A DNA stretch of 40,000 bases from an uncultured Acidobacteriota bacterium (lineage in GTDB: Bacteria > Acidobacteriota > Terriglobia > Terriglobales > Acidobacteriaceae). Positions 14,052 through 39,640 of the stretch are shown piece after piece (position 1 is the first letter of the stretch; the number at the start of each line of letters is the position of its first letter). The notes under the pieces are model-generated. The model was not told the origin of the DNA. It worked only from the letters and a program-made list of their open reading frames with translations, and ran no database searches. The position numbers were made by a program, and so were the translations under genes. Location of the stretch: NCBI GenBank assembly GCA_963755225.1, contig CAVWJE010000001.1, positions 324,005-364,004 on the forward strand. Direction: 5' to 3'.

Positions 14052-14279
14052 ATGCGTTATTTTTCTGCCGCCGAGATCGCAAATGAGCTTGGAGTGTCTC
14101 GCACAACGTTCTGGCGTTGGAGGTCAGATGGGAGCATTCCGGGTGGGCGTCGATATCGGGGTGGGAGGGTTGTGTTCACGGAGGAAGAGGTCGAAGAGAT
14201 CCGGGCATTTGCAAACCGACTCGAACCGATCGAGGGTCCGAACCGAAATCAAATGAAGTTGTTCAATGGTGTTCGTTGA
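14052..14279 (+). CDS. excisionase/AlpA-type (MerR-superfamily) helix-turn-helix DNA-binding protein
   Basis: MRYFSAAEIANELGVSRTTFWRWRSDGSIPGGRRYRGGRVVFTEEEVEEIRAF fits the HTH_17/excisionase pattern (...GVSR.T.YRW...G..P......G....F..eev..w). The ORF track starts at 14016; the start choice is uncertain. Confidence 0.6.
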   Translation: MRYFSAAEIANELGVSRTTFWRWRSDGSIPGGRRYRGGRVVFTEEEVEEIRAFANRLEPIEGPNRNQMKLFNGVR

Positions 14280-14288
14280 GGAGGCGTT

Positions 14289-14993
14289 ATGAACAAGCGC
14301 GGGGTCGTATTGTTAAGTGGCGGGCTAGATTCGTCAACTACGTTAGCGATTGCAAAAGATGAGGGTTTCAGTGCGTATGCCCTGAGTTTCAGGTATGGCC
14401 AGAGACACGAGGTGGAACTGGCAGCCGCTCAGCGGATCGTGGAGGCACTTGGGGCGAAGGAGCACATTGTCCTGAACATCGATCTACGGCCCTTTGGGGG
14501 TTCGGCGTTGACAGCCGACATAGAGGTACCCAAAGGTCGATCAGAACTCGAGATGGGTTCTGAGATTCCAATTACATACGTACCCGCAAGGAACACCATC
14601 TTTCTTGCCTTTGCACTGGCTTGGGCAGAGGTACTCGAATCGCAGGACATTTTCATTGGGGTGAATGCGGTCGACTACAGCGGATATCCGGATTGCCGAC
14701 CTGAGTTCATCAACGAATTTGAGTGCCTGGCGAATTTGGCAACCAAGGCGGGAGTAGAAGGCAAATCGAAGGTCAGGATACATGCCCCGCTGATCAAACT
14801 GTCCAAGGCGGAAATCATACGCAGAGGAATTAACCTGGGTGTCGATTACTCCTTGACCACCAGTTGCTACGATCCCTCGCCCGTTGGAGAAGCTTGCGGA
14901 GATTGCGACTCATGCAAGCTGCGAAGAAAGGGATTTAGGGAGGCGGGTGTGGCGGATCCAACCCGCTACCAGACACTCCGCGTTAGTGCATGA
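14289..14993 (+). CDS. queC: 7-cyano-7-deazaguanine (preQ0) synthase
   Basis: PP-loop [17 protein letters not shown], and the C-terminal Zn cluster [24 protein letters not shown] at 14278-14284. Confidence 0.95.
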
Positions 14994-15622
14994 GATACGC
15001 AGTCAAGGAGATTTTTTACTCGCTCCAAGGGGAGGGGGCCAATGTTGGCCGCGCAGCGGTATTTTGCCGTTTTGCAGGGTGCAATCTTTGGTCAGGGCGT
15101 GAGCAGGATCGGACAGCGGCGGCCTGTCAGTTCTGCGATACGGATTTCGTCGGAACTGACGGAAACGGTGGTGGTCATTTCGCGTCAGCAGATGAACTTG
15201 CAGGGGCCGTTAAGGCGAAATGGCCTTCTGGCGGGGTTAAACCCTTTGTCATCTGCACCGGTGGTGAACCCTTGTTGCAACTGGATCGAGGTTTGGTGGA
15301 AGCATTGCACGCGGCGGGTTTTGAGATCGCCATTGAGACAAATGGTACTCGAATCCCGCCCGCGGGTGTCGATTGGATCTGTGTAAGTCCTAAAGCGGAT
15401 GCGCGACTGGAACTTCGATACGGCCAGGAACTGAAACTGGTGTTCCCGCAAGAAAATGCCATGCCCAAGTCATTTGACGATCTTGATTTTCGCCACTTTT
15501 TTCTACAGCCAATGGATGGATCCAAATTGGCTGAGAATACACGGTTGGCTTTGCAATACTGTTTGGAACATCCGCAGTGGAGGCTGAGTTTGCAAACGCA
15601 CAAGTTTCTAAGTATTCCGTAG
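14990..15622 (+). CDS. queE: 7-carboxy-7-deazaguanine synthase (radical SAM)
   Basis: N-terminal [28 protein letters not shown]...CQFCDT carries the CX14CX2C cluster spacing. The start overlaps the queC stop (ATGA, 14990-14993). Confidence 0.95.
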
Positions 15623-15644
15623 TCGAGAGGGTGCGTGCTTGCTA

Positions 15645-16004
15645 ATGGAGATATTTAAGGAGTTCACGATCGAGGCGGCCCACCGACTGCCCCATGTACC
15701 GCCAGGCCATCGGTGTGGCAGGCTTCACGGTCACTCGTTCCGCATTGAGATTTATGTTAAGGGGGATGTGGACTCGGTGACAGGTTGGGTGGTGGACTTT
15801 GGAGAGATCAAGCGGGCATTCGGCTCAATACACGACGTCCTAGATCACAACTACCTAAACGAGATAGATGGCCTTGCGAATCCGACGAGCGAAAATCTGT
15901 CTCGGTGGATTTGGATGCGGCTACGACCAATGTTGCCTTTGTTGAGCAAGATTATTGTGCGTGAGACCTGTACGAGCGGGTCCATCTACCAAGGAGAGGA
16001 TTAG
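15645..16004 (+). CDS. queD: 6-carboxy-5,6,7,8-tetrahydropterin synthase
   Basis: MEIFKEFTIEAAHRLP...CGRLHGHSF...LDHNYLNE with the typical QueD/PTPS Zn-binding His residues. About 120 aa. Confidence 0.95.
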   Translation: MEIFKEFTIEAAHRLPHVPPGHRCGRLHGHSFRIEIYVKGDVDSVTGWVVDFGEIKRAFGSIHDVLDHNYLNEIDGLANPTSENLSRWIWMRLRPMLPLLSKIIVRETCTSGSIYQGED

Positions 16005-16010
16005 AACCGC

Positions 16011-16848
16011 ATGGAAGATGTCCAGAATCGACCTGACGAGCGCCAAATACCAATCGATAGAGTTGGCGTCAGCGACTTGCGCTACCCGATCACGGTTCTC
16101 GATCGGGAACATCAGAAGCAGCAGACCGTTGCGCGTTTATCAATATCGGTCGCACTGCCACATGATTTCAAAGGCACGCACATGAGTCGGTTTATCGAGG
16201 TGTTGAATGAGCACCACGGTGAGATCACGATGCGAACACTCCCAGGATTTCTCGTGGACATCAAGAAGCGACTCGCTGCTGAGAGCGCCCACATCGAAGT
16301 GAGATTCCCTTATTTCCTTGAGCGTACAGCGCCGGTGAGTGGTTCGAAAGCTCATGGACTACGACTGCTTCTTCTCGGCGGAGGCGAACGGAGGCAAACA
16401 GGATTTTGTTCTCGGAGTGCGGGTACCCGTTACTACGCTTTGTCCGTGCAGCAAGGAAATCAGCGACTACGGGGCTCACAACCAACGGGGATATGTGGAT
16501 ACCCGAGTGCGGAGTATTCTGCAAGCCGACGGCACCCGTGCGCTGATCTGGATTGAGGAGTTGGTCGAGTTGGTGGAGCGTTCCGCCTCTGCGCCGGTCT
16601 ATCCGTTGTTGAAGCGGGCTGACGAGCGGTATGTCACCATGCAGGCATACGACAAACCAATGTTTGTGGAGGACGTTGTCAGGGACGTTGCACAATCTTT
16701 GCAGAGGGACCCACGGGTGGCGTGGTTCCGGGCACATGCCAAGAACGACGAGAGTATTCATAATCACAGTGCGTTTGCGCAAATTGAGTGGGCCCGAAGC
16801 GCGTCGCGGGCTGTTGCGGAACTGGTTGAAGCGGAAGCCGTAAGCTGA
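16011..16848 (+). pseudogene. folE2: GTP cyclohydrolase I type 2 (FolE2/MptA family), one frameshift as given
   Basis: ORF 16011-16556 reads RVGVSDLRYPITV...GTHMSRFIEVL...YFLERTAPVSGSKA as real protein, then nonsense. ORF 16339-16848 continues LMDYDCFF...TTLCPCSKEIS...HNQRG...ESIHNHSAFA. The frame switch must lie within 16339-16355 (A3 run at 16347-16349). Confidence 0.85.
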
Positions 16849-16934: not shown

Positions 16935-16937
16935 TTG

Positions 16938-17898
16938 ATGGAACGCGCAATTAACATCGTTGTCACCTGCACGAAAAGAAAGTCCCAACCGGCTACATCC
17001 AATCTCCGACTTCGCAGCGTCAGAGCCAAGACAGTTGCCGAAAAACTGGACATATGGCTAAACAGACTTGGCGCAGCTTCCAGCGAGCTTTTGCCCGGGC
17101 GTGAACTCTATGCGGGCGATCATTGGAGCATAGTCAAGTCTCTAGCCGACACGGCCGCGAAATCAGGTCTTGTTGCGAGGGTCTGGGTTTGTTCGGCAGG
17201 CTACGGGCTTATCTCGCTAGACTCCAAGGTGCGTCCGTATGCTGCGACGTTCACTCCGGGCCTGCCCGACTCGGTCGCACGCGGTATTCGAAAGCCACCA
17301 GCGGCCCAAGTTGGGAAGGAGTGGTGGGGACTGTTAACGAAATGGTCAGGCCCAAATCCCCGAGTTTCCACGTAGCATTGCGGCCCTGGCTGAGCGCAAC
17401 CCGAATTGCCCACTTCTGATTGCTGCTTCACGGGACTACTTGACTGCGATCGAAGAGGATATTGCGTCGGCAGCGACCTTGCTAGTTCGGCGCGGGAATC
17501 TGATGATTTTTTCTGGTGCTGGCCACAACAGTTCAAGAATGGCGGGCGGCTACCTTCCGTGCAGCGCGGTGTTGCAGCGGGCGGTCGGGGGAGCAAGAAC
17601 TTCGCTTAACGTTCGTATTATTCGGAGAGTGCTTGAGGTCGCTGGTCCGGGCCGGTTAAATCACACGGCGGTACGCCGGACTTTGGAGCGCCTGATTGGT
17701 CAACAATCGCGGACGAGACGAGTTGTGCGACAACCGGCAAGCGATACCAAAATCCGGAAGTTTATCATGCTGGAACTGAACCGGAACCCCGCGGCGAGAC
17801 TTGGACCGTTACTGCGAAAATTTCGCGATCGAGGCTATGCGTGTGAGTATTCTCGCTTCGGGACGGCGTTGAAGGATCTTCAGCGGCGAGGTTGGTAA
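16938..17898 (+). pseudogene. dpdC: DpdC-like protein (candidate by position and fold pattern), one frameshift as given
   Basis: ORF 16935-17375 reads ELYAGDHWSIVKSL...VWVCSAGYGLISLDSKVRPYAATF, a pattern I associate with DUF6884-type proteins. It continues in the +1 frame, open from 17338 (PEFPRSIAALAERNPNCPLLIAASRDYLTAIEEDI..., ORF 17440-17898). Removing one C from the C4 run at 17358-17361 restores a single ~320-aa ORF. The DpdC assignment is contextual. Confidence 0.5.
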
Positions 17899-19034
17899 TG
17901 GCGCGTAGAACGAGGTCGGTAATTCAGCGAAGGGCTCTGCGACTGCGACAGAATCCAGCCCATCCTCTGTACTTGTTCTGTCTGACGGGAGATGAAATTC
18001 TGCGGATTGCTGACATCTCTCGATTGTCCCGCGACGATGCAGGCAAACTGATCGGGTACCAGCGGCCCGAGGTGCGGCGACACATCCAGGAGATCGCGGA
18101 CTATCTGAACACCGATGACATCCTGTTTCCGAATTCGCTCATTCTGGCTTTATCCTCAAGTGTGAAGTTCCGAGGTAGTCGTGGCCCGCATGTGGCGGAT
18201 GGTTTGGCGGAGGCGGGTATACTCGAGATCCGGGTACCAGGTCCTAAAGAATCCAAGCCCGCTTGGATTGTGGACGGACAGCAGCGGGCCCTGGCGATTG
18301 CCAAGTCGAAGCGGGCTGACTTGCCTATTCCGATCAACGCGTTTGTTGCTGATGATGTTGCGCTCCAACGTGATCAATTCTTTCGAGTCAACAACACCAG
18401 ACCGCTGCCGCGCGGATTGATTACGGAATTACTCCCGGAAGTCTCCACGCCCCTTCCTGCGAATCTCGAAGCCCGTAAGATCCCCTCGGCGCTATGTAAT
18501 CTGCTCAGCCAAGATAAACACTCGCCGTTCCGGGACTTGATTGCCCGCGCGTCCACCGCCGTTGCTAAGAGGAAGAAAGCAGTGGTTGCGGACGCGTCGA
18601 TAATTAAGATGCTGCAGGAGAGTCTGTCGTCGCCATCGGGATGTCTGTTTCCGTACCGCAATATTGCCACAGGTGAGACCGACTTCGACGCGATTTGGGC
18701 GACGATGGTGACTTATTGGACTGCTGTCCAGAAGACATTTCCAGAGGCTTGGGGCAAGCCTCCCCAAAAGAGTCGCCTCATGCATGGTGCGGGGCTTCGC
18801 GCGATGGGACGGTTGATGGATCGGGTTATGGCCCAAGTCATTCCGGGCAGTCCTGGGGCGGTAGATCATGCGCGCCACGAACTAAAGGTGATTGTGCCAA
18901 TCTGCCATTGGACCAGCGGTCGGTGGGCAGAGTTGGGGCTTGAGTGGAATGAAATACAGAACGTTCCTCGACATATCCGTATCCTGTCCAACCTTTTGGT
19001 CCGGGCTTATGTTCAGGGAAGGAGGGCGGCGTGA
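17898..19034 (+). CDS. dpdB: DndB/DpdB-type DGQHR-domain protein (here DGQQR), copy 1
   Basis: PAWIVDGQQRALAI (DGQQR at 18273-18287), FFRVNNTRPLPRGLITELLP and SRLMHGAGLRAMG. The ATG at 17898 overlaps the upstream stop (TAATG). Confidence 0.8.
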   Translation: MARRTRSVIQRRALRLRQNPAHPLYLFCLTGDEILRIADISRLSRDDAGKLIGYQRPEVRRHIQEIADYLNTDDILFPNSLILALSSSVKFRGSRGPHVADGLAEAGILEIRVPGPKESKPAWIVDGQQRALAIAKSKRADLPIPINAFVADDVALQRDQFFRVNNTRPLPRGLITELLPEVSTPLPANLEARKIPSALCNLLSQDKHSPFRDLIARASTAVAKRKKAVVADASIIKMLQESLSSPSGCLFPYRNIATGETDFDAIWATMVTYWTAVQKTFPEAWGKPPQKSRLMHGAGLRAMGRLMDRVMAQVIPGSPGAVDHARHELKVIVPICHWTSGRWAELGLEWNEIQNVPRHIRILSNLLVRAYVQGRRAA

Positions 19035-20275
19035 AGTTCTTTTTCCCAGACAGTCAGGATTTTGTCGATCCTAGTTTCAATTTTGAAACAGAAGTACGGT
19101 CCACTCTGAGAATCCGTCAGAGGGATGACCGGTACGCCCATGAAGAATTCGCAACACCGCCCTTTGACGGATTGTTGGTGTCGCGGGCTGTCTTGGACAG
19201 CGGGCGCTACACCTTAGCGCAGAAGCACCGTTTGTTGCGGGTCGGCTTGCAAGACTTCTTTAGGATAGCGGGTAAGAATCTGGAGACCATGGGAGACTGT
19301 GGTGCGTTTTCTTACGTTAGAGAAGAGTACCCTCCATACTCTGTTGACGAAATTATCCGCTTTTATGACGAAGTCGGTTTCGATTACGGAATCTCGGTGG
19401 ACCATGTGATTCTGGGTTTTGATGCGACAGAAAAGGGGGTCGGCCCTGACTGGAAGAGGCGCCGAGAGATCACCCTGCAGCTTGCCACTGAGTTCATTCG
19501 TGAGCACAGACGGCAGGATTGCCGCTTCATCCCCCTGGGGGTTGCGCAGGGGTGGAGTCCTGCTTCGTACGCTGATTCGGTTGAGCAACTGCAGAAGATG
19601 GGATACAGCTACTTGGCTTTAGGAGGCATGGTGCCACTCAAGACACCAGATATACTTGCTTGCCTAGAGGCAGTAGAGTCTTGCCGACGACGTGAAACAC
19701 GGTTACATCTTCTTGGTATTACGCGGTGCGAGCAAGTTCGGCAGTTCGGCAAGTATGGAGTCGCAAGTTTTGACAGTACTTCACCATTGCGACAGGCGTT
19801 CAAGGATATGAAAGACAATTATTGGGCAATGGACCGTACGTATTCGGCGATCAGGGTTCCACAAGTTGAAGCCAATCCTGAGTTGTCACGCCGTATATTG
19901 GCGGGCAAGGTGGACCAAAGTGAAGCTCGGCGACTGGAAAGGGCATGTTTACAAGCGCTTGCGGCATACGATTCGGATGCAGCATCGATCGAAGATATAT
20001 TGCCGCTTCTGCGGGCTTACGAACAACTGCATGACGGCTCTCGGGATCGAACGGAGATCTATCGAGAGGTACTGACCGATAAACCGTGGAAGAAGTGCCC
20101 ATGTGACGTCTGCAGGAGAATAGGGATTCACGTGATCCTGTTTCGTGGTGCTGAACGAAACCGGAGGCGAGGATTTCACAATCTATTTGTGTTTTACCAG
20201 CGACTGCATCGTGAACTGGGACAGGACGAGAATCGAGGCACTCCCGTTCTGGCGATCGAATGCATACAGAAGTAG
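19031..20275 (+). CDS. dpdA: DNA-guanine transglycosylase-like protein (TGT-fold, DpdA family)
   Basis: The GTG start overlaps the dpdB stop (GTGA, 19031-19034) and follows GGAGGG. Motifs include GDCGAFSY, GISVDH, LALGGMVPL and LHLLGITR. The TGT-type Zn motif is CPCDVC (20096-20113) followed by HVILFRGAERNRRRGFHN. Confidence 0.88.
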   Translation: MKFFFPDSQDFVDPSFNFETEVRSTLRIRQRDDRYAHEEFATPPFDGLLVSRAVLDSGRYTLAQKHRLLRVGLQDFFRIAGKNLETMGDCGAFSYVREEYPPYSVDEIIRFYDEVGFDYGISVDHVILGFDATEKGVGPDWKRRREITLQLATEFIREHRRQDCRFIPLGVAQGWSPASYADSVEQLQKMGYSYLALGGMVPLKTPDILACLEAVESCRRRETRLHLLGITRCEQVRQFGKYGVASFDSTSPLRQAFKDMKDNYWAMDRTYSAIRVPQVEANPELSRRILAGKVDQSEARRLERACLQALAAYDSDAASIEDILPLLRAYEQLHDGSRDRTEIYREVLTDKPWKKCPCDVCRRIGIHVILFRGAERNRRRGFHNLFVFYQRLHRELGQDENRGTPVLAIECIQK

Positions 20276-20286
20276 GGAGCAAGGCC

Positions 20287-21447
20287 ATGCCCGATATCAG
20301 TGTTCTCCGCCTGCCGGCTCTGGAGATTATCCAGGGGCCAAATCGTACTCTTTACAGCTTTGCGGTTGACGGTAAGCAACTCACAATGTTTGCCACGGTT
20401 TCCAGGATTCGTCGGCAGAGTGATGAGGTGTTATGCGGTTACCAGAGACCGGAAGTGCTGTCCCACATTGCCGAGATTCGCCGGTATCTGGAGTCACCGG
20501 ACCCCATGATTCCGAACGCAATTGTGGTCGCTTTTGACGAACGGGTGGAGTTTGAGCCTGCAGAAAGACAAGAAGGAGTGTCTCCCTACAGTCGCTCGGG
20601 GACTATCGTTATACCGATCGACTCAGGTCTGAGTGATCAGGAAAAGCCCGGTTGGATTGTCGATGGCCAACAGCGGATGGCTGCCATTCGCGAAGCGTCT
20701 ATCCACAACTTTCCGATCTGTGTGACCGCGTTCATCGCAAAGAACGATCAGGAACAAAAAGAGCAGTTCATTTTGGTGAACTCGACAAAGCCACTTCCGA
20801 AGGGACTAATTTACGAGTTGCTGCCCACTACGCAGATGACGCTGCCTTCTCTTCTGCAGCGGCGACGGTTCCCGGCCAAACTGGCCAACCGACTGAATTA
20901 TGATTTGGACTCCCCGTTTAAGGGCAAAATACGGACTGCAACTAATTCAAATGGTGCCGTGCAGGATAACTCCTTGCTGAAAATGCTGGAGAATAGCTTG
21001 AGTGATGGCGTCCTATATCGATTTCGCGACGCCGATACGGGAACCGGTGACGTGGAGTCGATGCTAAGAGTGGTTAAGGCTTTCTGGGGCGCGACGGCCA
21101 AAACATTTAAAGAAGCTTGGGAATTACCGCCTGTGCGTTCGCGATTGGTTCATGGGGCTGGCATCGTCAGCATGGGGTTCTTGATGGACGCCATTTCTGA
21201 TCGGTACTACGACAACCAGGAACTGACTGAGGAGCAATTTTTAGGAGATTTGCAACCTTTTCAACGGGTCTGCCGCTGGACACAGGGCTATTGGGACTTC
21301 GGACCGGGTGCCCAACGGAAGTGGAATGAGATTCAAAACACGTCGAAAGATATCAAGTTGCTTGCGAACTACCTTCTACTCCAATACCGCGCAATGATCA
21401 CAACTCGCCCGCGTGAGGAATCTGCGTACCGATCGCTGAATTCCTGA
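20287..21447 (+). CDS. dpdB: DndB/DpdB-type DGQHR-domain protein (DGQQR), copy 2 (diverged paralog)
   Basis: PGWIVDGQQRMAAI (DGQQR at 20662-20676), FILVNSTKPLPKGLIYELLP, SRLVHGAGIVSMG and WNEIQNTSKDIKLLANYL. The ATG at 20287 follows AGGGAG. Confidence 0.8.
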   Translation: MPDISVLRLPALEIIQGPNRTLYSFAVDGKQLTMFATVSRIRRQSDEVLCGYQRPEVLSHIAEIRRYLESPDPMIPNAIVVAFDERVEFEPAERQEGVSPYSRSGTIVIPIDSGLSDQEKPGWIVDGQQRMAAIREASIHNFPICVTAFIAKNDQEQKEQFILVNSTKPLPKGLIYELLPTTQMTLPSLLQRRRFPAKLANRLNYDLDSPFKGKIRTATNSNGAVQDNSLLKMLENSLSDGVLYRFRDADTGTGDVESMLRVVKAFWGATAKTFKEAWELPPVRSRLVHGAGIVSMGFLMDAISDRYYDNQELTEEQFLGDLQPFQRVCRWTQGYWDFGPGAQRKWNEIQNTSKDIKLLANYLLLQYRAMITTRPREESAYRSLNS

Positions 21448-21504
21448 GAAAACTCTTGAGTCGTCGGAGTTTGAAGTGTTCGTTTGTAGAATATTTTGGT
21501 GCAT

Positions 21505-21526
21505 CCGACCGAAGAGTCTCGGTCGG
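21505..21526 (+). terminator. GC-rich hairpin downstream of dpdB copy 2 (weak candidate intrinsic terminator)
   Basis: CCGACCGA-AGAGTC-TCGGTCGG: 8-bp perfect stem with a 6-nt loop, followed by TCGTTGTTCG (T-containing but not a clean U-tract). It lies 58 nt after the stop at 21447. Confidence 0.3.
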
Positions 21527-21658
21527 TCGTTGTTCGCAAGATTAAGGCTACCGTTTCCTCACTCAACAGGTTATTCTTTGGTCGGATAGCGCAGCGACTA
21601 GACGTTTTGGTCCTCCCCCTGCGCCAAGAAAATGAACATGAAGTAGTGACGGCGGAGT

Positions 21659-21672: not shown

Positions 21673-21697
21673 GGGGAAAGTCTCCGGTTCGTGTGGT

Positions 21698-24600
21698 TTG
21701 AGACGAACTCGGAGGGTGACCAAACAAGACGTGTGCCCACATCTTCAAGCTGCCGGCTTTGTAAAGTCGCGCTCAAATCGTCTCGGTTCAGGCAAACTCG
21801 TCGGCGTGTCCGGTGGCACTGCAACCGTAGAGTATTTTCGTTCCATAGCGAATAGGTTTCGAGAGCAGTTACGGGTTGAGTCGCTGTCGATCGTTCGCCT
21901 TCCTGCGCAGACTCGCTGCTACTTCGTGGATGGCGAAGGCTCCTGGTTAATGGGACGGACGGGTGCATTTTTCGACGGGGAATACGAAGTCAATCTTCCT
22001 GGGAGGCAGGCTCGCTACGTCCCTGAAACATCGTTATTCGTCCGGTGTGGCTTACCCATAGAGGATCCAACAGATGTGCTCGCGTTGAAGGCTCATGAAA
22101 CAGCGTTCTTTCATCAGCATCGATTGGAGTTCTACAGGTGTCTGGTAGATCAACGGGCAGCTTTTCGAGGAATGACGGGGTTAGTTTCATCACGCGTGGA
22201 ACTGTTTCCTCACCAGTTCGATGTAGTGCGGCGAGTTTTGCAGGATCCAGTGCAACGGTACCTGTTAGCAGACGAGGTAGGACTGGGTAAGACCGTAGAA
22301 GCGGGAATCATTCTGAGGCAATTGTTGCTTGATCAACCTAATGCTACCGCCCTGGTTCTAGTTCCACCGTTAATTATCGATCAGTGGAAGCAAGAATTGG
22401 AAGAGAAGTTCACTTTTGGGCTGGCCGGAGAAGTCGAGGTTTACGGCACAAATCGCTTGTTGCATTTGTGCGCGTCTGAGAGATCTCGTTATCTTGGACG
22501 AGGCTCAACTGGTTGCGTCTTTGGCATGGGGGTCGGGCAAAGATAGGGCAGCCTTCGACAACTTTATGGAGTTCTCGCGTCGCGCGAAAAGACTGTTGCT
22601 GTTGTCTGCCACACCAGTGCTGAACAATGAGCGAGACTTTCTGGCAATGTTGCACATGCTTGATCCTGCCGTGTTTCGTTTGGAAGATTTCCATGAGTTT
22701 CGGGTCCGCATAGGCAAACGGCAGGAAGTGGGCAGGGCACTGCTGGCGCTACGAGAAGGAATGTCCATAGTTCCGCTGAAAGCTGCCCTGAGAGCATTGC
22801 GTCGAAATTTTCAGGAAGACAAGATGCTCGATGGCCTTGCTTCGCGGTTGGAGAACCTGCTTAATGGTGATTCTAGCTCAGAGGAGCGTGACAAAATAAT
22901 TCGTGACATCCGGATCCACATTAGTGAGACGTATCGCTTGCATCGACGTATGCTGCGAAACCGCCGACAAAACGTTGGAAATGTGCTCTGGTCAGTTCGT
23001 AATGGCAAAACTGAATTTAACAAAATGGTGCAGGAGATCGACACTGATGAGCGCCTTCAGTCGGCTCTGGAACAATTGGAGAACTGGCGAGCGGCGGCCA
23101 TCAACGAGGCCAAAGGGTTTGAAAATGGTTCGTGGATGCTGGGGTTGAAGGAAGTCTATTTCTTGTTGTTGGAAGCACTTGATGGTTCATTGTGCATACT
23201 TCATGAAGCGGCAATAGCACGCCGCCAACGAACATCGTCGGTTTCTCTCGCGCGTGATTTCGGCTCTAGGGCGAATGTGTTGTGGGAGTGTCCGGAATTC
23301 GACGGTGAAGATGTCTGGCTTAAGGAGTTGCAACACCTCACAGAACGCCCGGCGGAAGACGGTGACCGACTCCATGTCTTGAGGGACATAATCAGAAGGC
23401 GTCGAGGTGGGCGCGGCGCGTCAAATAGCAAGTTCGTAGTGTTTGCGACGCTTCCGAGCGTTTGCCGACGAGCTTACGAGTTTCTGCAAACAGCGTTCGG
23501 AGAGCATTCTGTGGCGTCCTATTACGGTGGGCAAAGTACGGAAGAGGCTGAAGACAGTACAGAATCGTTTCGCGATGCGAATTCCCATTGCGACATTCTT
23601 GTCTGTGATCGATCTGGCGAAGTTGGCCGAAATTTGCAGTTTGCTAATGTCTTAATTCATCTGGATCTTCCCTGGAATCCCAACCGCATTGAACAGCGAA
23701 TCGGTCGACTCGACCGAATCGGTCGCAAGGAGCGCCTGACTTCTCATGTATTTATTGGTCCCGATACAGAGGGATCTGTTGTTGAGGCGTGGTATCGGAT
23801 GCTTTCCGACGGTTTCGGCGTCTTCGGCGAATCGATAGCCTCCCTTCAACTCTTCGTGGATGCTGTTATGCCGCGAGTCCGCGAAGCAAGTTGGATGTAT
23901 GGTTCGACTGGACTCGAAACTCTTCTACCTTCTCTACGTGAAGAACGGGAGATCGAACGCGTGCGAATAGCCGAGCAGGACGCGCTTGATCTGATTGAAT
24001 CGACCACCGGTGATGATCGAGATGTTTTCCAGCGGTTGGACGAGTTGGACGGCGAACATTTGCGCTTGCAGAGCCAGATGGAGTCATGGGTGGTAAATGC
24101 ATTGAACTTCAATAAGAAAGAAGTACCGGCCGTGGCAGGGGCTTGGTACTACAAAACTGCTCACAATACGCTTGTGCCGCTGAACCTGTTGGCCGGAACT
24201 GAAGAGGACGAATCTATAGCCGTTTCCATAATTGAGCCGAAGACATTCCGGCGGGAAACCGCTGTCGCGAATCCTGAGGTCGGGCTATTGCGGATTGGTG
24301 ATCCATTCGTGGACGCGATGGCTTCTTACCTGGATTGGGATGATCGAGGAAAGGGATGCGCACTTTGGAGGTGCGTTTCCGGATGGAACGGTTCAGAATC
24401 CGCAGATTGGATTGGTTTTCGATTTATTTTCTTAGTGACTGCTGATTGCAGCAAGGCAGTCGCTAGCGCAAAACGACTTCTGCCGGCAGACTTGACGAAT
24501 CTGCAATGGTCAAGCGTGGCGATGCCTTGCTTGCTCCTTTCCTGGTTGACCGTATTCTTGATGCTGATGGGAAGCACGTCTCTGAAGCGCGGATTGTGGA

Positions 24601-25015
24601 AGCGATAAAACTGCCATACAACTTGAAGGAACGTACGATTGATACAAATCTGGCAAAGGAGCACCTGTCAGTCCTTGATCGTCTGGTCGATTCGAGTCGG
24701 TGGCCCGATCTGTGTCGCCGACTGCGGTTTCTAGCTGAAACTCAATTACGGGAGGACCCGGAATTCAAGATGATCACGGAAGGTGCAGCCGAAGATGCGG
24801 CCAAGAGACTATCAGTGCAAACGGAATCTCTCCGCCTTCGGGTTGCAGAACTTGCTCGTAAAGGGGGTCAGGACCTGCAGTTCGAGCAGGATCACTTGCG
24901 TGTTGAGCAGCAACTCGCCGACGATCTCCTCGCTGGAATTGGCGAGCCTCACGTCAGGCTCGACTCGATTGCATTCTATGTGTTGTCCGGGCGTCCGTGC
25001 CCACGCGAAAAATGA
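21698..25015 (+). pseudogene. dpdE: SNF2-family helicase (DpdE-like), two frameshifts as given
   Basis: Fragment 21698-22546 carries motif I LLADEVGLGKTVEAG and LVLVPPLIIDQW. Fragment 22416-24608 carries DExQ LVILDEAQ, LLLSATPV and DLPWNPNRIEQRIGRLDRIGR. Fragment 24506-25015 is the C-terminal tail. Junctions are at about 22440-22480 and 24495-24510. The start codon is uncertain (TTG at 21698 or downstream GTGs). Confidence 0.8.
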
Positions 25016-31495: not shown

Positions 31496-32210
31496 TGCTG
31501 GTTGAGCGATGCGCAACGGCGCAGTCTCTTGCGACAGAACTCAATAAAGCAAGGGAACTGAAGAATCAAGCAAAAGGCATAAGACAACGTTTGGAACAAT
31601 TGCGAGTCTTACAAAGACGATTCTCAGGCCTGACGACCTCTTCGACAGAATTGAGAAAACACAAAGTGCAAGTGCCGGAGAAGAGGCGCCCTCTGCCGCG
31701 CTGATACAGAACGTCGTAGACATATGCGACATCGTGGTAAATTCGCCGACGCAGTTTGTGGATTCCCCAAGAGTTACCGAGTTCGCCACCGATCGTGGGC
31801 CAGACTATCTCCAGCGACTCGAAAAGACCCTCAAGAAAGCATGGGAGCAACACATCGACAAAGTTGCTCCGGCAACGAATCTAGACTTTCTGTCGGTCCT
31901 CAGCAAGATCCATGCCTTCACCGCGACTGTAAAGAAGATCGAGAGATTCGAGGCCTCACTAAAGCGTCGACGTGACACCTTACCTAATCAAGTCGCGGAC
32001 TTCGATGAATTGAAGGGTATCGTCGCTGAATTGGCTACGGCCTGGGAAACAATCGGAGGTGACAAGGTGCCACCTGCAGTGCGGGAATTTCTCCGACAGG
32101 CTGTGTCTCCGGTCGGAGTGTTGTTGTCTCGTTATGATGAGGAAGTGTCTGATTGGCTCGAAGATCACAACATTGCTGATCAATTTGTGATTCGTAATCG
32201 CGTGAGCTAA
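31495..32210 (+). pseudogene. dpdI: hypothetical protein in the DpdI position (~238 aa if joined), one frameshift as given
   Basis: The ATG at 31495 follows GGAGGAG (31484-31490) and reads MLVERCATAQSLATELNKARELKNQAKGIRQRLEQLRV. The second frame is open from 31548 and continues plausibly as ...TKTILRPDDLFDRIEKTQ...VVNSPTQFVDSPRV into ORF 31734-32210. The junction is at about 31600-31615; the join is my inference. Confidence 0.35.
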
Positions 32211-32226: not shown

Positions 32227-35200
32227 ATGACGGAGTTCAGCCGAGAACAACTCGGGCAGTTTCTCAGTGAATTGGAAACCTTGGAGACTCGTTTGTTGTA
32301 TTGGGGCGTAGTCGATGGCAGCTTCACGCGGGACGAGATTGTTGAAGCCGCCGCCAAAGCTGTCGGCGAGACAGATGTTGATCCGGAAGAACTTCTTGAA
32401 GAGATGATTGCGCAACAGTTGGTGTTCGAGGTGGTCGACGGTACTCGATATCGTACTAGGATGGCCGAAACAATGCGTCTCTTGGTTCGACTGCGACAAC
32501 TGTTTCCAGGGCGTCCGTGGCAAGCAGGCGCAACCTTAGTGGCAGACTATCGCTTCAGCATGCGGAGTCGACGATATCCCGATCGTAACCGTGCCCCGGA
32601 ATGGGTACTACAAGAGGTTGGGGCTTCCTGTGAGCTTGAGTCCACACGGCGGAGGGCTTTGGAACAGATGTTGCGAGGGGATGGCGAACCGCTAACGCTC
32701 GCGGATTTCCAAGTTGACGCGACGCGTCAGATCTTATCGGATCTGAGGGGACGAACGTCACGGGGGATCATAGTTTCCACAGGAACTGGTACAGGCAAGA
32801 CCCTCGCCTTTTACTTGCCAGGCCTTACGTTTCTTGCAGGCGCACTGAGAAAGAACAAATACAGTGTTAAAATCCTCGCCCTTTATCCCCGCAAGGAATT
32901 GCTTAAGGATCAGATTACGGAAACACTTCGCCAAGTGCGAGCGCTTCACCGGGGAATTGAGAAGTTCTTACCTCGCAAGATTCTCGTCGGAGCGTTTTAT
33001 GGGGATACGCCGTTATATGGGAACGTCTTGTCCCTGAGGGAGTACGCAAAATGGCCAGAGCGCAGCGGCGGTTTTGTATGTCCTTATTTGCATTGCCCTG
33101 AAAACGAGTGTGGCGGTGACCTTCTCTGGACTAGGGAGGATGCTGAAAGAGGCAAGGAACGATTGCATTGTATTGAAGATGCGAGCCACATTGTTGACGA
33201 ATCGGAGGTCGTCCTGACTCGAAGAAGGCTGGCCAGTTCTCCAGTCGATGTCCTTTTTACCACGAGTGAAATGCTCAATCAGGAGATGAGTAATTCTGAA
33301 ACGCGCCACGTGTTTGGTCTTGGCTGCGCAGACCCGCCTCGACTCATGTTGTTAGACGAAGTTCATACTTATGAGGGCACGCACGGTGCGCAAGTAGCTC
33401 TACTGGTTCGTCGTTGGCGCCACGCTCTGGGAAGAGGTACACCGATTGAATTTGTGGGACTGTCGGCCACTTTGCGTAACGCAGCAGATTTCTTCGCCAC
33501 ATTAGTTGGCTTAAACTCAGGACAGGTTGTTGAAGTGTTTCCCGGTCGCAACATGGTTGAGAAAAGCATGGAATATCAAGTTGCGCTTCGGGGAGACCCA
33601 GTATCCGGTGCCAGTTTGCTCGCGACGACGATTCAGGCAGCTATGCTGCTTCGTCGCATGCTCAATGTGCAAAATGCTGGCGGGACTTCCGACTTGTATG
33701 GTTCGACCGTCTACGCCTTCACTGACAATCTTGATGTAACAAACCGTCTGTACAACAATCTCCAGGATGCTGAAGCACTGGATTTTCGTGGAGCGCGGAT
33801 CAGGGGACGCCAACCGCTGGCTGCACTTCGTGCGAGTGCGCTGCCGAACAATGCAGAGCGAATGCGAGAAGGGCAATCCTGGCGGTCAGCGGAGCAGATC
33901 GGATACAACTTGTCTGATTCGCTCAGAATTACGCGGACAAGTTCCCAGGATTCGGGGGTCGATCGCACCAGTGATGTGGTGGTAGCGACCGCATCCCTCG
34001 AAGTTGGCTATAACGATCCGACCGTGGGTGCGGTGATGCAGCACAAGGCGCCCATTGAGTCCGCAGCGTTCTTGCAGCGACGCGGGCGCGCAGGGCGTAT
34101 TCGTCAGATGCGGCCTTGGACTGTGGTAGTCCTCTCCGACTATGGGAGGGATCGACTTGCATATCAAGGTTACGACCTGCTTTTTGATCCGGAATTACCG
34201 CCCCGTTATTTGCCGGTGCACAATCGTTACGTGCTCAGAATGCAGGCACTCTTCGCTTGTATGGAATGGTTGGAGCAACGCCTTGCGGGCGCGTCTTTGC
34301 CAAAGGGAAGCGTATATCGCGATTGGTCTGGTCCATCGGACAAGAGCATTCAACGAGACCGACAACGGTGGATGGCGAAGTTCTTACGCGAGTTTGTCAC
34401 GGGCACTGCTCAACAATCCATACGGGCCGAGTTCGACATTTACTTAGCGCAGGCGCTCCAGATCTCGGCGGAAGAGGTACAGGCTATTCTTTGGGACCCG
34501 CCTCGCTCGGTTATGAGGGCAGCTCTGCCTACTCTCTTGCGCCGACTGGAATTCAATTGGAAACGCTGGCAATTCCGGCAGACTGATCCACAATGGGACT
34601 TCTTTCAACGGAACAATCCGCTGCCGGATTTTCTTCCGCCCAGTCTTTTTAGTGATCTTAATCTCCCGGAAGTCATTCTCCATTTTCACACTCCACGAGA
34701 AAAAGAAGAGCGTATGGGCGTGGCTCAAGCAATGAAGGAGTTTGCGGTGGGCAATGTCACGCGCCGGTTCTCTCCTGAGAGGTCTGATGTGAGTCACTGG
34801 ATTGCTCCGCGAGAGATCAGAGACGGTGATCAGGAAATACCGATTCGTTCTGTTTGTCAGGATTTCGAGGCATTAGGAGCGTTCCAGATCTCTGGAGGGG
34901 GCTGAAATCCGAGATGTTAATTGCTATCGTCCATGGACCATCTTGCCTTCTGAGTGTCCGCGGCGCATTAAGCCGACGTCGAAAGGCGTGCTTGATTGGA
35001 GGACCCAGATATTTCCTGACGGGCCATCTCAGATATTTGAGACACCGTCGAAGTCGCCCTGGGCGAGACTTGTTGAGGCGCTGGAATTCTTCACTCATAA
35101 CACGCATGGGCATGTTGTGGTTAGACGATTCGCCCTGGGTTCGCAGGCAGAACTGTTAGTCCGGCAGCAAGGTGTATCGGAAATATCAAGTTACGTGCGA

Positions 35201-36850
35201 TTTGTAGATCGTGATTCAGCGACGGGAGATTCTGCGAGTGAGTCAGAAACGAGGGGTAATAGCCAAGCGGCAATTGGGTTTAGTCAGGATGTTGATGGGA
35301 TATGTGTTAGGGGGGTTCGAGTTGTTGATGCACATGTGGACCCCGGTGTTGAAGGCAATACGGAAAAGATTCGGTGCCTGCGTACGGCTTACTTCGTGCA
35401 TTGCGTCATAAACGATCAGGCGCTGCGTCTGTCAGCGAACTATTTTCTGCTGGAATGGCTCGCTCAAATTTACCTTTCTACGCTCACGTCGTACGCGATG
35501 GAGTGCAACAAGAGCCTCGTCGAAGCACACGATGACCTACAATCCCTTGTTCTAGGAAGACGGATGGGTGAAGTGCTTGACGTGATTTTTCAAACACTTA
35601 ATGTCGAAGAACCCGCTGTTGACAGAGAGTCGGAGGAAGGGGCCGGAAATAGTGAAAATGGTCCGGAGGAGACCCGAATTCGTCAAAAGGTACATCGCCG
35701 ATTGTTGGATCTGTGTGGGCAGGTTGGTGTCACAGAACGGTTGAGGCATTGTGCGTCAGTTCTCTGGTCAGAACCAACACCAGAGTGGCACACGTGGGTA
35801 GAGAGTAGATTTCGTGCGACTCTTGGAGCGGCGATTCTGGAGGGCTGCCAGCGGATATGCCCACAGTTTGATGCAGATTCCCTCATCCTGGACATCGAGC
35901 CAGGACCACCACCCGGCGATTCTGCTGGGAGGCGTGAGACTCCGTCCGGTAGGTACGAAATCTGGATAACGGAAAATTCACCGGGAGGCGCTGGGGTCAT
36001 CGAAGAGATCCTACGACGAGTTGCTGAAGACCCCCTCCATTTTTTCCGATTGGTTGAAAGTGCTCTAGCTTCCTCAGAGTTTGAATTGGTAGATTCAGAA
36101 ATTAGCCGACTCCTGAACTGTCTCGATGATGACGAACAACTACGGCAGAAATTCAGAGACTTTCGGGATGCTGTTGGAAATAGTGCAACTCACGCCGCTC
36201 TCGCCAGGCTGCGAGCGTTAATGAGACAAAGAGGGTATCGAATATCGCATTCGGTGATGAGTGCTCTCAATTCTCGCCTTCTTCGGCCGGGCAGTGACGC
36301 GGAAACGGACCGAGTTGTGCGAGATCTAATCAATGATTGGAAGGCGGCAGAAGAGCGTCTCGGAGTAGAGATTGATGCGCGGGTGTTCGCTTACGTTGCC
36401 AGTCGTCAACCTCGATTTGAACACGCTCTAAATCATATTGATGCTGACTTACGCAGTGATGCGCGATGGAATTTCCAGGCGATCTACGGATTGCTCTGGC
36501 CGAGGGGAAATGTCGTTCGGAAACTGTCGCTCTCGATACGAAATCCTTACGCTTCAATCCCCCCAGCGGATCGGCAACTCTTGCGTGACTGTTTGGAAGA
36601 CCCGACCACGGCGGTCGCTGTCACGGAGGCGAACTGGCGCGAACGTCTCGCAACCTTACTAGAGGAATATGGCGCAGCACGCATCGTGGCACCTGCGGCA
36701 TTGGCGGAAGAGTTGAAGAAGGCGTTGCTGTCGATAGCGAGTCAACCCCTGGACCTTGGTTTTCTGAGTGTGTATCCAATCGTGGAGCGAATCGAATCGC
36801 AAAGTGGCTCGCTCGAAGCACTCCTGGTTTGTCGGGAGGCGATACAGTGA
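32227..36850 (+). pseudogene. dpdJ: very large DEAD/DEAH-box helicase (DpdJ-like, ~1540 aa), one frameshift as given
   Basis: Motif I STGTGTGKT, motif II LLDEVHTY, GLSATL and LQRRGRAGR. A Cys cluster is inserted in the helicase core (CPYLHCPENEC...HC, 33079-33171). ORF 32227-34905 ends ...FQISGGG*. Deleting one G from the G5 run at 34897-34901 reads on as ...SGGAEIRDVNCYRPWTILPSECPRRIKPTSKG into ORF 34943-36850. Confidence 0.78.
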
Positions 36851-37359
36851 CTGCGTCCGCGAACCGTCAGGTCTTATCGTCTCCGCGACTTCGACAAATT
36901 CCAGATCTTCTACAGTCCATAGTGGCGGCTGAACTGTTAGTGCCGAGTAAACATTTCTGGCTGGTGAGTCCGTGGATCTCTGATATCCCCTTGCTCGACA
37001 ATGACGCAGGTTCATTCTCCACGTTCGAACCGGAATGGCCTTTTGCTCGCATCCGTCTTTCGCAGATCCTGCATTATTTGGCAGAAAGTGGAACACAGAT
37101 CACGGTAGTGACTCGAGATGTTGAGCACAATCGGCAGTTCCATAATGCTGTTGCGAGTTTAGCCTCAGCCGAGCGACTGCGGTTTCTCTTCTCCGATGAA
37201 CTTCACGCAAAGGGAATTCTAGCTGATCAATTCTACTTGAGTGGATCAATGAACTTCACCTACAACGGGATTTACGCAAACACGGAGGTTCTTCATCTGA
37301 TCACCGATTCCAGACTTATTGCGGAAGCACATCTATCGATGCGAGAGTGCTGGGGTTGA
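36847..37359 (+). CDS. dpdK: phospholipase D-family (single HKD) nuclease (DpdK-like)
   Basis: HKD motif HAKGILADQFYLSGSMN (37204-37254). About 170 aa, Nuc-like in size. The GTG at 36847 overlaps the dpdJ stop (GTGA) and follows GGGAGG; the ORF-track start is the TTG at 36829. Confidence 0.8.
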   Translation: MTASANRQVLSSPRLRQIPDLLQSIVAAELLVPSKHFWLVSPWISDIPLLDNDAGSFSTFEPEWPFARIRLSQILHYLAESGTQITVVTRDVEHNRQFHNAVASLASAERLRFLFSDELHAKGILADQFYLSGSMNFTYNGIYANTEVLHLITDSRLIAEAHLSMRECWG

Positions 37360-37366
37360 TCGCGCC

Positions 37367-39640
37367 ATGGTGAATATCGCCGCCAATGAGGTAGACGAGT
37401 TTTTGCGGGTGTTCTTTGCCCCGCCCAATCAAGTCAGTTGGCAGCAAATCGAGAGTTCTCCTGCGCACGCATGGGTGCGAAGATGGGTGGACCGGTTGAG
37501 AGAACAACCTCGACGGGCGACTGTTCTGCCGTTTATCCATGAAGATCACCGTGGGAAGCTTTGGCACTTGAATTACGGCATAGCCTTTTCGGAAACCGAG
37601 TTTCGGCAGTTGGGCAGCGACCTCGAAGCTTTCGTTGGCCCGACGTTCTCAAATTTTCGACTCCACCGTGCTCGTCTTAGTCCGGATAGGACCATGCAGC
37701 AGGCTGTTCTGCAACTATCATCTGGATTCGCATATCGTTTTTTCAGCCCGGCGGATCCCGCAGGAGCTGAAAACTTCCGCAACGCGCTTGAGTTCATGGA
37801 TCAAGTGACCTCAAGAGAACAACCTCGACGACGGGAACTCCAACAGTCAACGGGGCGGATGCTGCGCGACTTTTACACATCGTTGGAGACTGGACAAAGG
37901 GATATCGCGCAAGGGCGAATTAACGACCTGCGAGAGCTAAACAGACTTGACGCACTGAATCTCAAGTTTCTTCAGATCCAGTTGCTTTCTCGATTGGGCA
38001 CGGCAAAAGAACTGTTAATGCTGTCTGGGTTGCCTGACGTGTTAGGGGCACGGCGACCTCTTCTCGTTACCCAAGTTCTGGTCCAAGCCGTTTACGCTTC
38101 GTTTATAGAAGAGTTCGAGAAACAAGGCGATGCTGCGGGGGCACTACAGGTATTTCGAGATAAGGTCCTGCCAACTTTCGGAACGTTGTACGCGACCCAA
38201 GCGGGTTTGTCAGCGCCCGAAGTGGCAAAGAGCGGAATGCTTCTGGCGGTTGCTTCGGACCCCCCTCGCAAAGAATTGTCGCGTCGTATTCTGAGCCAAG
38301 GCGTGTCTGATCCAGTTGGTCAGCAATGGCTGCAGAAGTTGTATGCCTTGTCGGAGGTTCCTCCGACCTCAGTCGAGAAGGTTGCGGACTTATTGCAGGC
38401 TGCGGAAAGTGCGTTGGCGGTAGAGGATTACGATGGCGCATTTATGTTGCTCCGGGATTGTCCGATTTCACTGGGAGTGGCCCAAAAGCTGATCTCAGTC
38501 GCTATTGAGTTACAAACTCTAGAAGCTTACGAAATTGCCCGAAGAGCGTATTCACAACTTAGTTCGAGGGAGAAGGAGGTGTTGCAGTCCAGTCGGGCAC
38601 GCCGCATTATTCTTCAGGAAGTTTTGCAAGCTGGGTTGCCAGTCACCGAGGTAACTGAGCGACTTCCTCAGAACTGGTTTGACTGGGCCATTCTGCTGCA
38701 GCGGCACGCAGACAGGAAGGGTTGGTACAAGGTAGGTCAGCGGGGCAGTATGGAATGGGCTGGATTTGAGACTCTAGAAGACCCTGAGAAGTTGTTAGGA
38801 CTGACAAGCATGCTGCTGGAACTGCAGAGAAATTCTGAAGTTCATATGGCGGTGCCACACTTAGTCTTTTCGCTCCGCTCACGCGAGCGCCAGGTATCGC
38901 CTGAGTTGACGGCTCTTTTTTCAGCTCTGATGACGATCCTGGCGATCAACAAAGATTGCTCGGTTATGGATCTCAGGCTCTGGGCTGACCTGGCCGACAC
39001 CGTCCTTGAAGCGGGCCCCGCCCCCAACGACTATCGCGATCTTATTGAACAGGCGACGCTCCTCTGGCAAATGTACAATGCGCCGGAGGCAATTGATTGG
39101 GCACTGGATGTTCTGGATACTTTGTCGATCCATCCGTGCCGCGATTCCAAGGCACGTTCCGATTTTATTTCTGCTATCGTTGCAAGCTTCGGTTCCTTTC
39201 CTCAACGTCTTTCATCGGAGCAATTGCATTTCTTTCAGCAACTGTGCTCGGAGTGTGGGGAACTCAGCGCAGCGAATGCCTTCGCGGGTCGACCGGGTGA
39301 ACCGGTCGAGCGTTCTTCGATCTATTCTCAATTGAGGAATAGGACTCTTGCCGTTTATAGTCTCACGGAACACGCGAGCAGGCGATTCAAGGGTCTGGTG
39401 GAGAGTTGGTTCCCGGGAGCCAGGGTTGTGCTGAGCCACGATAAGGTAGGTAACCCAGCGCTGCAAAAGATGGCTGAAAACGCCGACATCTTCTTGGTTG
39501 TTCCAAGCAGCGCAAAACATGCCGCTACTACCTTTATTGAAGAGCACCGCCCAAAGCAAAAACCCACGCTTTTTGCTCAAGGAAGAGGAACAACGGGGAT
39601 GCTGAATACCTTGTTGGAGTATTTGAGGGAAGCAGCTTAA
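37367..39640 (+). CDS. 758-aa protein of unknown function closing the operon (possible DpdD equivalent)
   Basis: Intact ORF with its ATG at 37367, 8 nt after the dpdK stop. It looks long and mostly helical, and ends in a short alpha/beta-like segment (RTLAVYSLTEHASRRFKGLVESWFPGARVVLSHDKVGNPALQKMAENADIFLVVPSSAKHAATTFIEEH). The DpdD suggestion is by elimination only. Confidence 0.35.
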   Translation: MVNIAANEVDEFLRVFFAPPNQVSWQQIESSPAHAWVRRWVDRLREQPRRATVLPFIHEDHRGKLWHLNYGIAFSETEFRQLGSDLEAFVGPTFSNFRLHRARLSPDRTMQQAVLQLSSGFAYRFFSPADPAGAENFRNALEFMDQVTSREQPRRRELQQSTGRMLRDFYTSLETGQRDIAQGRINDLRELNRLDALNLKFLQIQLLSRLGTAKELLMLSGLPDVLGARRPLLVTQVLVQAVYASFIEEFEKQGDAAGALQVFRDKVLPTFGTLYATQAGLSAPEVAKSGMLLAVASDPPRKELSRRILSQGVSDPVGQQWLQKLYALSEVPPTSVEKVADLLQAAESALAVEDYDGAFMLLRDCPISLGVAQKLISVAIELQTLEAYEIARRAYSQLSSREKEVLQSSRARRIILQEVLQAGLPVTEVTERLPQNWFDWAILLQRHADRKGWYKVGQRGSMEWAGFETLEDPEKLLGLTSMLLELQRNSEVHMAVPHLVFSLRSRERQVSPELTALFSALMTILAINKDCSVMDLRLWADLADTVLEAGPAPNDYRDLIEQATLLWQMYNAPEAIDWALDVLDTLSIHPCRDSKARSDFISAIVASFGSFPQRLSSEQLHFFQQLCSECGELSAANAFAGRPGEPVERSSIYSQLRNRTLAVYSLTEHASRRFKGLVESWFPGARVVLSHDKVGNPALQKMAENADIFLVVPSSAKHAATTFIEEHRPKQKPTLFAQGRGTTGMLNTLLEYLREAA

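Follow-up and report, generated by a model that had tools for sequence, protein, structure and literature searches.

Results

Genes of the island

The 40,000-nucleotide stretch of DNA analysed here (the window) comes from an uncultured Acidobacteriota bacterium (assembly GCA_963755225.1, contig CAVWJE010000001.1, positions 324,005 to 364,004). From 14031 to 39640 on its + strand, listing and translation of the open reading frames (ORFs) gave 25.6 kb with 17 co-oriented genes, in the order HTH_17 - queC-queE-queD-folE2 - dpdC - dpdB1-dpdA-dpdB2 - dpdE-F-G-H-I-J-K-D. A preliminary description, made from the sequence alone, had called this region a self-contained Dpd-type 7-deazaguanine DNA modification and restriction island with its own pathway from GTP to preQ0, and comparison with the NCBIfam and PADLOC family models confirmed this identity, together with the coordinates and the gene count. 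Families were assigned with NCBIfam equivalog models, and with PADLOC DpdC profiles for DpdC, which has no NCBIfam model. All eleven Dpd families are represented, with scores above the model cut-offs for all but DpdI, whose match is weak. Adjacent genes often overlap by 4 nt, and all lie on one strand, as one or two operons would lead one to expect. We consider it highly probable that this stretch holds a complete Dpd island with operon organisation, of a widespread 'two-DpdB, preQ0-linked' type, and that the six frameshifts in it are assembly errors. The features of the island are as follows.

14031..14276, + strand: small DNA-binding protein of the HTH_17 (AlpA/MerR-like) family; Pfam HTH_17, E 1.7e-10; alternative ATG at 14052
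14289..14993, + strand: queC, preQ0 synthase; TIGR00364, 197.9 bits (cut-off 150.3)
14990..15622, + strand: queE, radical-SAM 7-carboxy-7-deazaguanine synthase of the Cx14CxxC type; TIGR04508, 356.1 bits (cut-off 240)
15639..16004, + strand: queD, 6-carboxytetrahydropterin synthase; TIGR03367, 104 bits (cut-off 89.25)
16011..16848, + strand: folE2, GTP cyclohydrolase IB; split, the pieces matching profile positions 1-117 and 118-270
16935..17898, + strand: dpdC, predicted by orthology to turn DNA-borne preQ0 into its amide form, dADG; PADLOC PDLC02817; split
17892..19034, + strand: dpdB1, DGQQR/ParB-like paralogue 5' of dpdA; NF041060, 424.7 bits (cut-off 300); DGQQR at aa 128
19031..20275, + strand: dpdA, DNA-guanine transglycosylase; NF041059, 567 bits (cut-off 200)
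20260..21447, likely start 20287, + strand: dpdB2, orthologous to the canonical ATPase DpdB; NF041060, 498.4 bits (cut-off 300); DGQQR at aa 135
21505..21526, + strand: strong GC-rich hairpin with an 8-bp stem (6 GC pairs), followed by a T-rich stretch, in the gap between dpdB2 and dpdE
21698..25015, + strand: dpdE, SNF2/BrxHII-like helicase; three pieces matching profile positions 3-226, 251-885 and 893-1048
24997..27606, + strand: dpdF, RecQ-like SF2 helicase (DEAH); NF041063, 861.8 bits (cut-off 550)
27603..28487, + strand: dpdG; NF041064, 125.8 bits (cut-off 80)
28454..31495, + strand: dpdH, BrxC-like P-loop NTPase of 1013 aa; NF041065, 772 bits (cut-off 450); Walker A GEAGTGKS at aa 84
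31495..32210, + strand: dpdI, divergent; start codon overlapping with the stop codon of dpdH; frameshifted
32227..36850, + strand: dpdJ, YprA-like DExH helicase (DEVH); NF041067, N-terminal piece 1201 bits (positions 1-878; cut-off 800), C-terminal piece 511 bits (positions 897-1482)
36829..37359, + strand: dpdK, single-HKD phospholipase-D-family (PLD) nuclease; NF041068, 186.7 bits (cut-off 100); HAKGILAD at aa 126
37319..39640, + strand: dpdD, 758 aa; NF041061, 470 bits (cut-off 300); 14 PADLOC DpdD profiles

Modification genes and DpdA

All four enzymes of preQ0 synthesis (FolE2, QueD, QueE and QueC) are encoded, as had been described, with equivalog scores above the cut-offs. For FolE2 this holds for the repaired protein: with one base removed, folE2 gives 283 bits (cut-off 215) and an end-to-end profile match with no internal stop. 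The alternative ATG of the HTH_17 gene at 14052 explains why the island had been described as starting there. The two halves of DpdC match PDLC02817 at positions 2-124 (E 1.5e-38) and 154-288 (E 7.4e-25) of 299, with a weak DUF6884 match, and a one-base repair yields a stop-free protein of 320 aa that is collinear with the DpdC of a related JGI metagenome contig (L003).

The protein of the tRNA-guanine transglycosylase (TGT) fold with the motif CPCDVC, which lies exactly at 20096-20113, is DpdA. In the hidden Markov model searches that the preliminary description had proposed, this ORF matched DpdA and the downstream ORFs matched Dpd families. The generic tRNA-TGT model (tgt_general) gave 21.9 bits, below its cut-off of 47.6, and the only solved structure matched by the DpdA sequence of the window is that of Salmonella Montevideo DpdA (7ui4; E 2.5e-130). 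Alignment with the 7ui4 protein places D89 at Asp95 (general acid/base), D248 at Asp256 (nucleophile) and D124 at Asp130; Phe93, Leu228 and Phe257 are also retained, and the Zn ligands C356, C358, C361 and H383 are all present. In the published assignment of residue roles, Asp95 and Asp256 of the Salmonella enzyme were shown to be essential. The DGQQR proteins reported on both sides of the TGT-like gene each exceed the DpdB cut-off. The single DpdB of Enterobacter cloacae is 49% identical to DpdB2 and 37% identical to DpdB1.

Restriction genes and DpdD

DpdD, E, F, G, H, J and K stand in one cluster, and each exceeds its NCBIfam cut-off, DpdE by its larger fragment and after repair, and DpdJ by its N-terminal part. 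The SNF2, RecQ-like and DEAD/DEAH helicases, the P-loop NTPase of about 1000 aa and the single-HKD PLD nuclease of the preliminary description correspond to DpdE, DpdF, DpdJ, DpdH and DpdK, respectively. Repaired DpdE scores 956.6 bits (cut-off 500) over profile positions 3-1048 of 1048. Elsewhere dpdJ is one ORF of about 1520-1550 aa, and repair of the window gene gives 1540 aa without a stop. DpdH has been called BrxC-like in the literature.

The 758-aa ORF that closes the operon, left unassigned in the preliminary description, is DpdD, and its homologs carry the Pfam family PF28109 (DpdD). A homolog search found only 6 proteins, and a repeat with their alignment returned the same 6. A full-length model built on this shallow alignment, with a predicted local distance difference test (pLDDT) score of 73.7, shows an N-terminal alpha/beta domain, a helical solenoid at about 178-655 and a C-terminal alpha/beta domain, which contains an invariant Lys733-His734. 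The model and fold searches together describe the solenoid as TPR-like and the C-terminal domain as flavodoxin-like. The full-length fold search returned only generic TPR/PPR solenoids with a template modelling (TM) score of about 0.13, and the model of the C-terminal domain (pLDDT 81.7) matched only generic flavodoxin-like folds (ATCase subdomains, CheY-like receivers) at E > 1e-3. DUF2325 was considered for DpdD and rejected, since the match is not significant (E 0.049). As a guess, DpdD could have a scaffold or regulatory role.

The gap of roughly 300 bp between dpdB2 and dpdE is the only sizeable intergenic gap of the island. The hairpin at 21505-21526 may be a terminator or attenuator that separates the modification genes from the restriction genes. 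The total of terminator-like sites in the region was no greater than in shuffled sequence, and the counts of promoters and of terminators were at or under the shuffled expectation.

The island among related loci

A scan of one genome per species gave 397 relatives of DpdA; the best 80 of these and two contigs of close relatives, 82 loci in all, were annotated with the window proteins. An identical DpdA is already present in public data, on a contig of 413,551 bp. The closest other DpdA proteins are 77-82% identical, the nearest being from Acidobacteriota metagenome-assembled genomes (MAGs), and their contigs have HTH_17, queC, queE, queD, folE2, dpdC, dpdB, dpdA and dpdB in the same order as the window. 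L003 remains collinear on through dpdE-F-G-H, with all genes intact and 72-90% protein identity. An ortholog of the HTH_17 gene lies directly 5' of queC in L002 and L003 and in 19 of the 82 loci. From its position, the HTH_17 protein is probably the regulator of the operon.

The preliminary description had singled out the duplicated dpdB and the preQ0 operon joined to the island as departures from the Salmonella cluster. Both features are there, and neither is distinctive. The arrangement dpdB1-dpdA-dpdB2 occurs in 67 of the 82 loci and dpdA-dpdB2 without the upstream copy in the other 15; dpdB2 follows dpdA in every locus, and the upstream copy is never found alone. At least one preQ0 gene lies within 10 kb in 69 loci. 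The full eight-gene string queC-queE-queD-folE2-dpdC-dpdB1-dpdA-dpdB2 is found in 30 loci, and it runs co-oriented into dpdE-dpdF in five, one of which is from Sorangium sp. So ce375, a complete genome. Acidobacteriota, Planctomycetota, Myxococcota, Actinomycetota, Gemmatimonadota, Chloroflexota and other phyla are represented among the loci. A survey of 2335 unique dpd islands counted 801 additional dpdB copies and found QueD in 78% of the islands, with a share above 20% for QueC and QueE (NAR 2025); the preQ0 cluster is also described in the literature as 'sometimes duplicated' within dpd islands. The claimed differences are the norm of this DpdA clade and already known in the literature.

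Members of each DpdB class have a median identity of about 61% to their own window counterpart and about 38% across classes, and DGQQR is retained in almost every member of either class; by these comparisons, dpdB1 and dpdB2 are an old paralogue pair.

The modification half of L002 is alike, with a DpdA 80% identical to that of the window, and it is followed by another downstream module (L002 12018-20663), which encodes a protein of 764 aa and a helicase that exceeds 2140 aa and has AAA_11, AAA_12 and DEAD domains. In L004 and L005 the modification half is 67-70% identical and the restriction proteins just 25-48%. These patterns indicate that modification and restriction halves have been exchanged between islands.

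Frameshifts

The count of 17 genes was right, and five of the 17 (folE2, dpdC, dpdE, dpdI and dpdJ) are not intact ORFs in the given sequence. Comparison with intact orthologs shows that they are broken by six single-base frameshifts, which the preliminary description did not mention:

~16343-16354: folE2, one extra base
17363-17367: dpdC, one extra base, in CCCC
22477-22481: dpdE, first site, one extra base
24485-24494: dpdE, second site, one missing base
~31626-31665: dpdI, one missing base
34890-34903: dpdJ, one extra base, beside GGGGG

Every single-base insertion and deletion was tried near each junction. One single-base edit per frameshift restores a full-length protein with no internal stop or other lesion. 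The flanking genes are equally broken, with 3 frameshifts in 14 kb, two in an ABC exporter gene (756-2638), near 1420-1440 and near 1724-1770, and one in an ArdC-like gene (12811-13718), at ~13180-13365, compared with 6 in the 25.6 kb of the island.

An independent Logan assembly of run ERR10755945, from the same sample, covers 17367-23218 and 36013-40000 of the window with contigs L001 and L084. Over these 9.8 kb it differs from the window by two mismatches (at 23202 and, in a GATC context, at 38968) and two single-base indels. Of the two indels, one adds an A at 20317 and shortens dpdB2; the other, GGGG for GGG at ~39415, splits dpdD, which is intact in the window. One Logan contig begins exactly at the CCCC frameshift site of dpdC. 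Among the 82 loci, putative dpd or que frameshifts were seen in 7 of the 10 from 'MFD' MAGs (L005, L013, L017, L020, L024, L030, L045, L063, L075 and L076) and in 1 of the 72 others. We take the 'MFD' series to have been assembled from nanopore reads.

Flanking genes

A third gene with a DGQHR domain, encoding 375 aa, converges on dpdD; its 3' end is at 39807..40000 on the - strand, and the rest lies beyond the window. It has a true DGQHR motif and a domain score of 77 bits (cut-off 58.9), and falls well under the DpdB cut-off. L084, which runs past the end of the window, carries a gene for an HNH endonuclease (269 aa) upstream of it, the pair occupying 3795-5745 (-) of that contig. The HNH and DGQHR pair recurs by dpd islands in at least six other loci (L085, L004, L032, L050, L021 and L058) at 57-87% identity, and across these loci it is better conserved than DpdD. 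The pair may be an accessory that resembles a split SspE.

Directly upstream of the island there are the following genes:

10378-11127, - strand: SRAP peptidase
11134-12657, - strand: ParB-like protein of the PRTRC ParB family
12811-13718, - strand: ArdC-like anti-restriction protein, with one frameshift

This set suggests part of a conjugative element, and the island may ride on or adjoin a mobile element. A megablast search of the PLSDB plasmids gave no match to the island, no tRNA or tmRNA gene that could mark an insertion site was found in the window, and a repeat scan gave only short repeats at chance level, with no att-like direct repeats at the flanks. A search of the whole window against Rfam at gathering thresholds gave no match, so there is no preQ1 riboswitch before queC.

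Farther out, a gene for a PqqD-like protein (142-525, -), the ABC exporter gene (-) and an ORF of 532 aa that matched no family (2715-4313, -) adjoin and could be an export cluster for a ribosomally synthesised and post-translationally modified peptide (RiPP). The ORFs at 4699-5969 and 6998-8785 had no Pfam, NCBIfam or PADLOC family match, and a DUF4238 protein is encoded at 9398-10363 (+), between them and the SRAP, ParB-like and ArdC-like genes.

Discussion

Alternative readings

Some observations weigh against a complete island whose breaks are assembly errors. The dpdE frameshift at 22477-22481 is identical in both assemblies and could be real, and only 2 of the 6 frameshift sites are in homopolymers of at least 4 bases. 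DpdI scores only 26.5-29 bits with NF041066 (cut-off 150); the repaired protein aligns over positions 14-239 of 239, and it has 36% identity to its positional counterpart in L019. Finally, the position of His181 in Salmonella DpdA is taken here by a Gln (residue 173, window 19547-19549), which does not vary within the clade in an alignment of 17 sequences. If the frameshifts are genuine, this is a true Dpd island that is dead or in decay, with folE2, dpdC, dpdE, dpdI and dpdJ inactivated, and at most DpdA and DpdB would still insert preQ0, if the host supplied it. The six frameshifts do stand in the given sequence, one of them is reproduced in the Logan assembly, and costly restriction genes are commonly lost from defence islands. 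However, the six are independent changes of one base each, unaccompanied by in-frame stops, deletions or further damage, and all of the fragments are still 54-90% identical to intact orthologs. Furthermore, the unrelated flanking genes have an equal density of frameshifts, the two assemblies disagree at further indel sites, and the frameshifts concentrate in a single series of assemblies and are not general to Dpd islands. Because of the equal density in the flanks, the disagreement between assemblies elsewhere, the lack of other decay and the clustering in the 'MFD' series, the six frameshifts are most likely indel errors of assembly and the organism itself probably has an intact island; a decaying island is unlikely. 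Phase variation was rejected as the cause of the frameshifts, since the tracts have only 4-5 bases and frameshifts also hit unrelated genes in the flanks.

The function of the island could also be read in other ways. The TGT-like enzyme and the preQ0 genes might serve tRNA modification (queuosine or archaeosine), next to helicases and a nuclease that belong to a separate DISARM or BREX system. DpdA does have the Pfam TGT domain in common with the tRNA enzymes, DpdE, DpdJ and DpdK weakly match the DISARM models DrmD, DrmA and DrmC, and homology of Dpd parts to BREX and DISARM parts is on record in the literature. But the 567 bits for the DpdA model, compared with the 21.9 bits for the tRNA-TGT model, and the scores for DrmD (76-173, cut-off 610), DrmC (21, cut-off 133) and DrmA (18, cut-off 999), where the Dpd models pass, leave this reading effectively refuted and with next to no probability; furthermore, annotated Dpd clusters show synteny with the entire set of genes. 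A use for modification only, in which a mobile element protects the DNA that it transfers instead of defending the host, would fit with the ParB-like, ArdC-like and SRAP genes directly upstream, and phages do employ DpdA-type modification against restriction. Those phage systems are without DpdD-K, however, whereas the window has the full DpdD-K set, in synteny with the system of the Salmonella type, for which genetics has demonstrated restriction, so we regard such a use as very improbable. The Dpd island with both modification and restriction genes is the reading on which the following proposal is based.

Proposed working of the system

The working of the system is proposed by analogy with the Salmonella proteins. 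preQ0 would be made from GTP via FolE2, QueD, QueE and QueC, an established pathway whose enzymes are assigned here by equivalog models. DpdA would then exchange guanine in duplex DNA for preQ0 through a covalent Asp intermediate, with ATP hydrolysis by the ParB-like DpdB, as expected from orthology and the conserved catalytic residues; with the Salmonella DpdA and DpdB, the exchange, its covalent intermediate and its need for ATP hydrolysis have been shown in vitro. DpdC should independently hydrolyse the nitrile, converting dPreQ0 in DNA to dADG, a conversion that has been shown for Salmonella DpdC. DNA without the mark would be restricted by DpdD-K, for which a restriction phenotype has been shown genetically in Salmonella. 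The parts available for this are the SNF2/BrxHII-like motor DpdE, the RecQ-like helicase DpdF, the BrxC-like NTPase DpdH/I, the YprA-like helicase DpdJ with DNA-binding add-ons, and the PLD nuclease DpdK. Their domains and the comparative literature suggest a division of labour in which the helicases and translocases would do the sensing and DpdK is likely the cutter. The HTH_17 protein would regulate the operon. No mechanism for restriction by DpdD-K is given in the literature searched, and this locus does not help to explain how they detect unmarked DNA and destroy it.

What is the function of the second DpdB? Salmonella DpdB is a homodimer. The identity of only about 38% between the two classes, the DGQQR motif in both and the fact that DpdB1 never occurs without DpdB2 lead us to the tentative idea that DpdA is partnered here by a DpdB1/DpdB2 heterodimer, possibly with a different choice of target site, and that the HNH and DGQHR pair serves as an extra effector like a split SspE. 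We think this possible, though on balance doubtful; no experimental test of the heterodimer or of the extra effector was found in the literature searched.

Comparison with known systems

The S. Montevideo dpdA-K cluster and that of the E. cloacae plasmid pPOL9A (NZ_CP086409.1, annotated by PGAP) share all eleven Dpd families with the window, DpdI by a weak match, and the catalytic Asp residues and Zn site of Salmonella DpdA are kept. The gene order had been thought to differ from that of the reference. In fact, pPOL9A transcribes dpdE-F-G-H-(I)-J-K-D as in the window, and the difference lies only in how these genes are oriented with respect to the modification genes: the window island is all co-oriented, whereas the Salmonella/pPOL9A type is convergent. 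Identities to the pPOL9A proteins are 50% for DpdA, 49% for DpdB2, 34% for DpdJ, 33% for DpdF, 31% for DpdK, 27% for DpdE, 24% for DpdH and 23% for DpdD. Compared with this type, the window has in addition the second DpdB paralogue, queC-queE-queD-folE2 within the cluster and the HTH_17 gene, and its DpdA has Gln for His181. The gene string from (HTH) queC through dpdB2-dpdE-dpdF is shared with five loci from other organisms, namely L003, a Terracidiphilus MAG (L006), Sorangium sp. So ce375 (L031), a Polyangiaceae MAG (L053) and an Acidimicrobiaceae MAG (L063); unlike in the window, their reading frames are intact.

DISARM and BREX have homologous parts, in the SNF2/BrxHII-like protein (DpdE), the BrxC-like NTPase (DpdH/I), the YprA-like helicase (DpdJ) and the PLD nuclease (DpdK), but their mark of self is a methyl group, whereas the Dpd mark is a 7-deazaguanine inserted by a transglycosylase. 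The phage modules for DpdA, preQ0 and archaeosine combine a DpdA-family transglycosylase with preQ0 genes, as does the window, but they lack DpdD-K and act in anti-restriction, whereas the window has the full restriction set. The Dnd/Ssp phosphorothioation systems (DndB, SspE) have DGQHR/ParB-like NTPase proteins in common with Dpd; their chemistry places sulphur in the backbone, in contrast to the exchange of a base. DpdB1 and DpdB2 do not have the EHxxP nicking motif.

Implications

The island adds to the known examples of the Dpd deazaguanine restriction-modification system. Given that the nearest relatives of its DpdA come from Acidobacteriota MAGs, it probably belongs to a soil bacterium. 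Where defence islands in such assemblies are frameshifted, the flanking genes should be checked before pseudogenes are called, since a signature of the 'MFD' type could mislead. The layout of the Salmonella cluster is not the usual one, and in this DpdA clade the two-DpdB, preQ0-linked form is the common one. Experiments on a member of the two-DpdB clade would reveal the role of the second DpdB.

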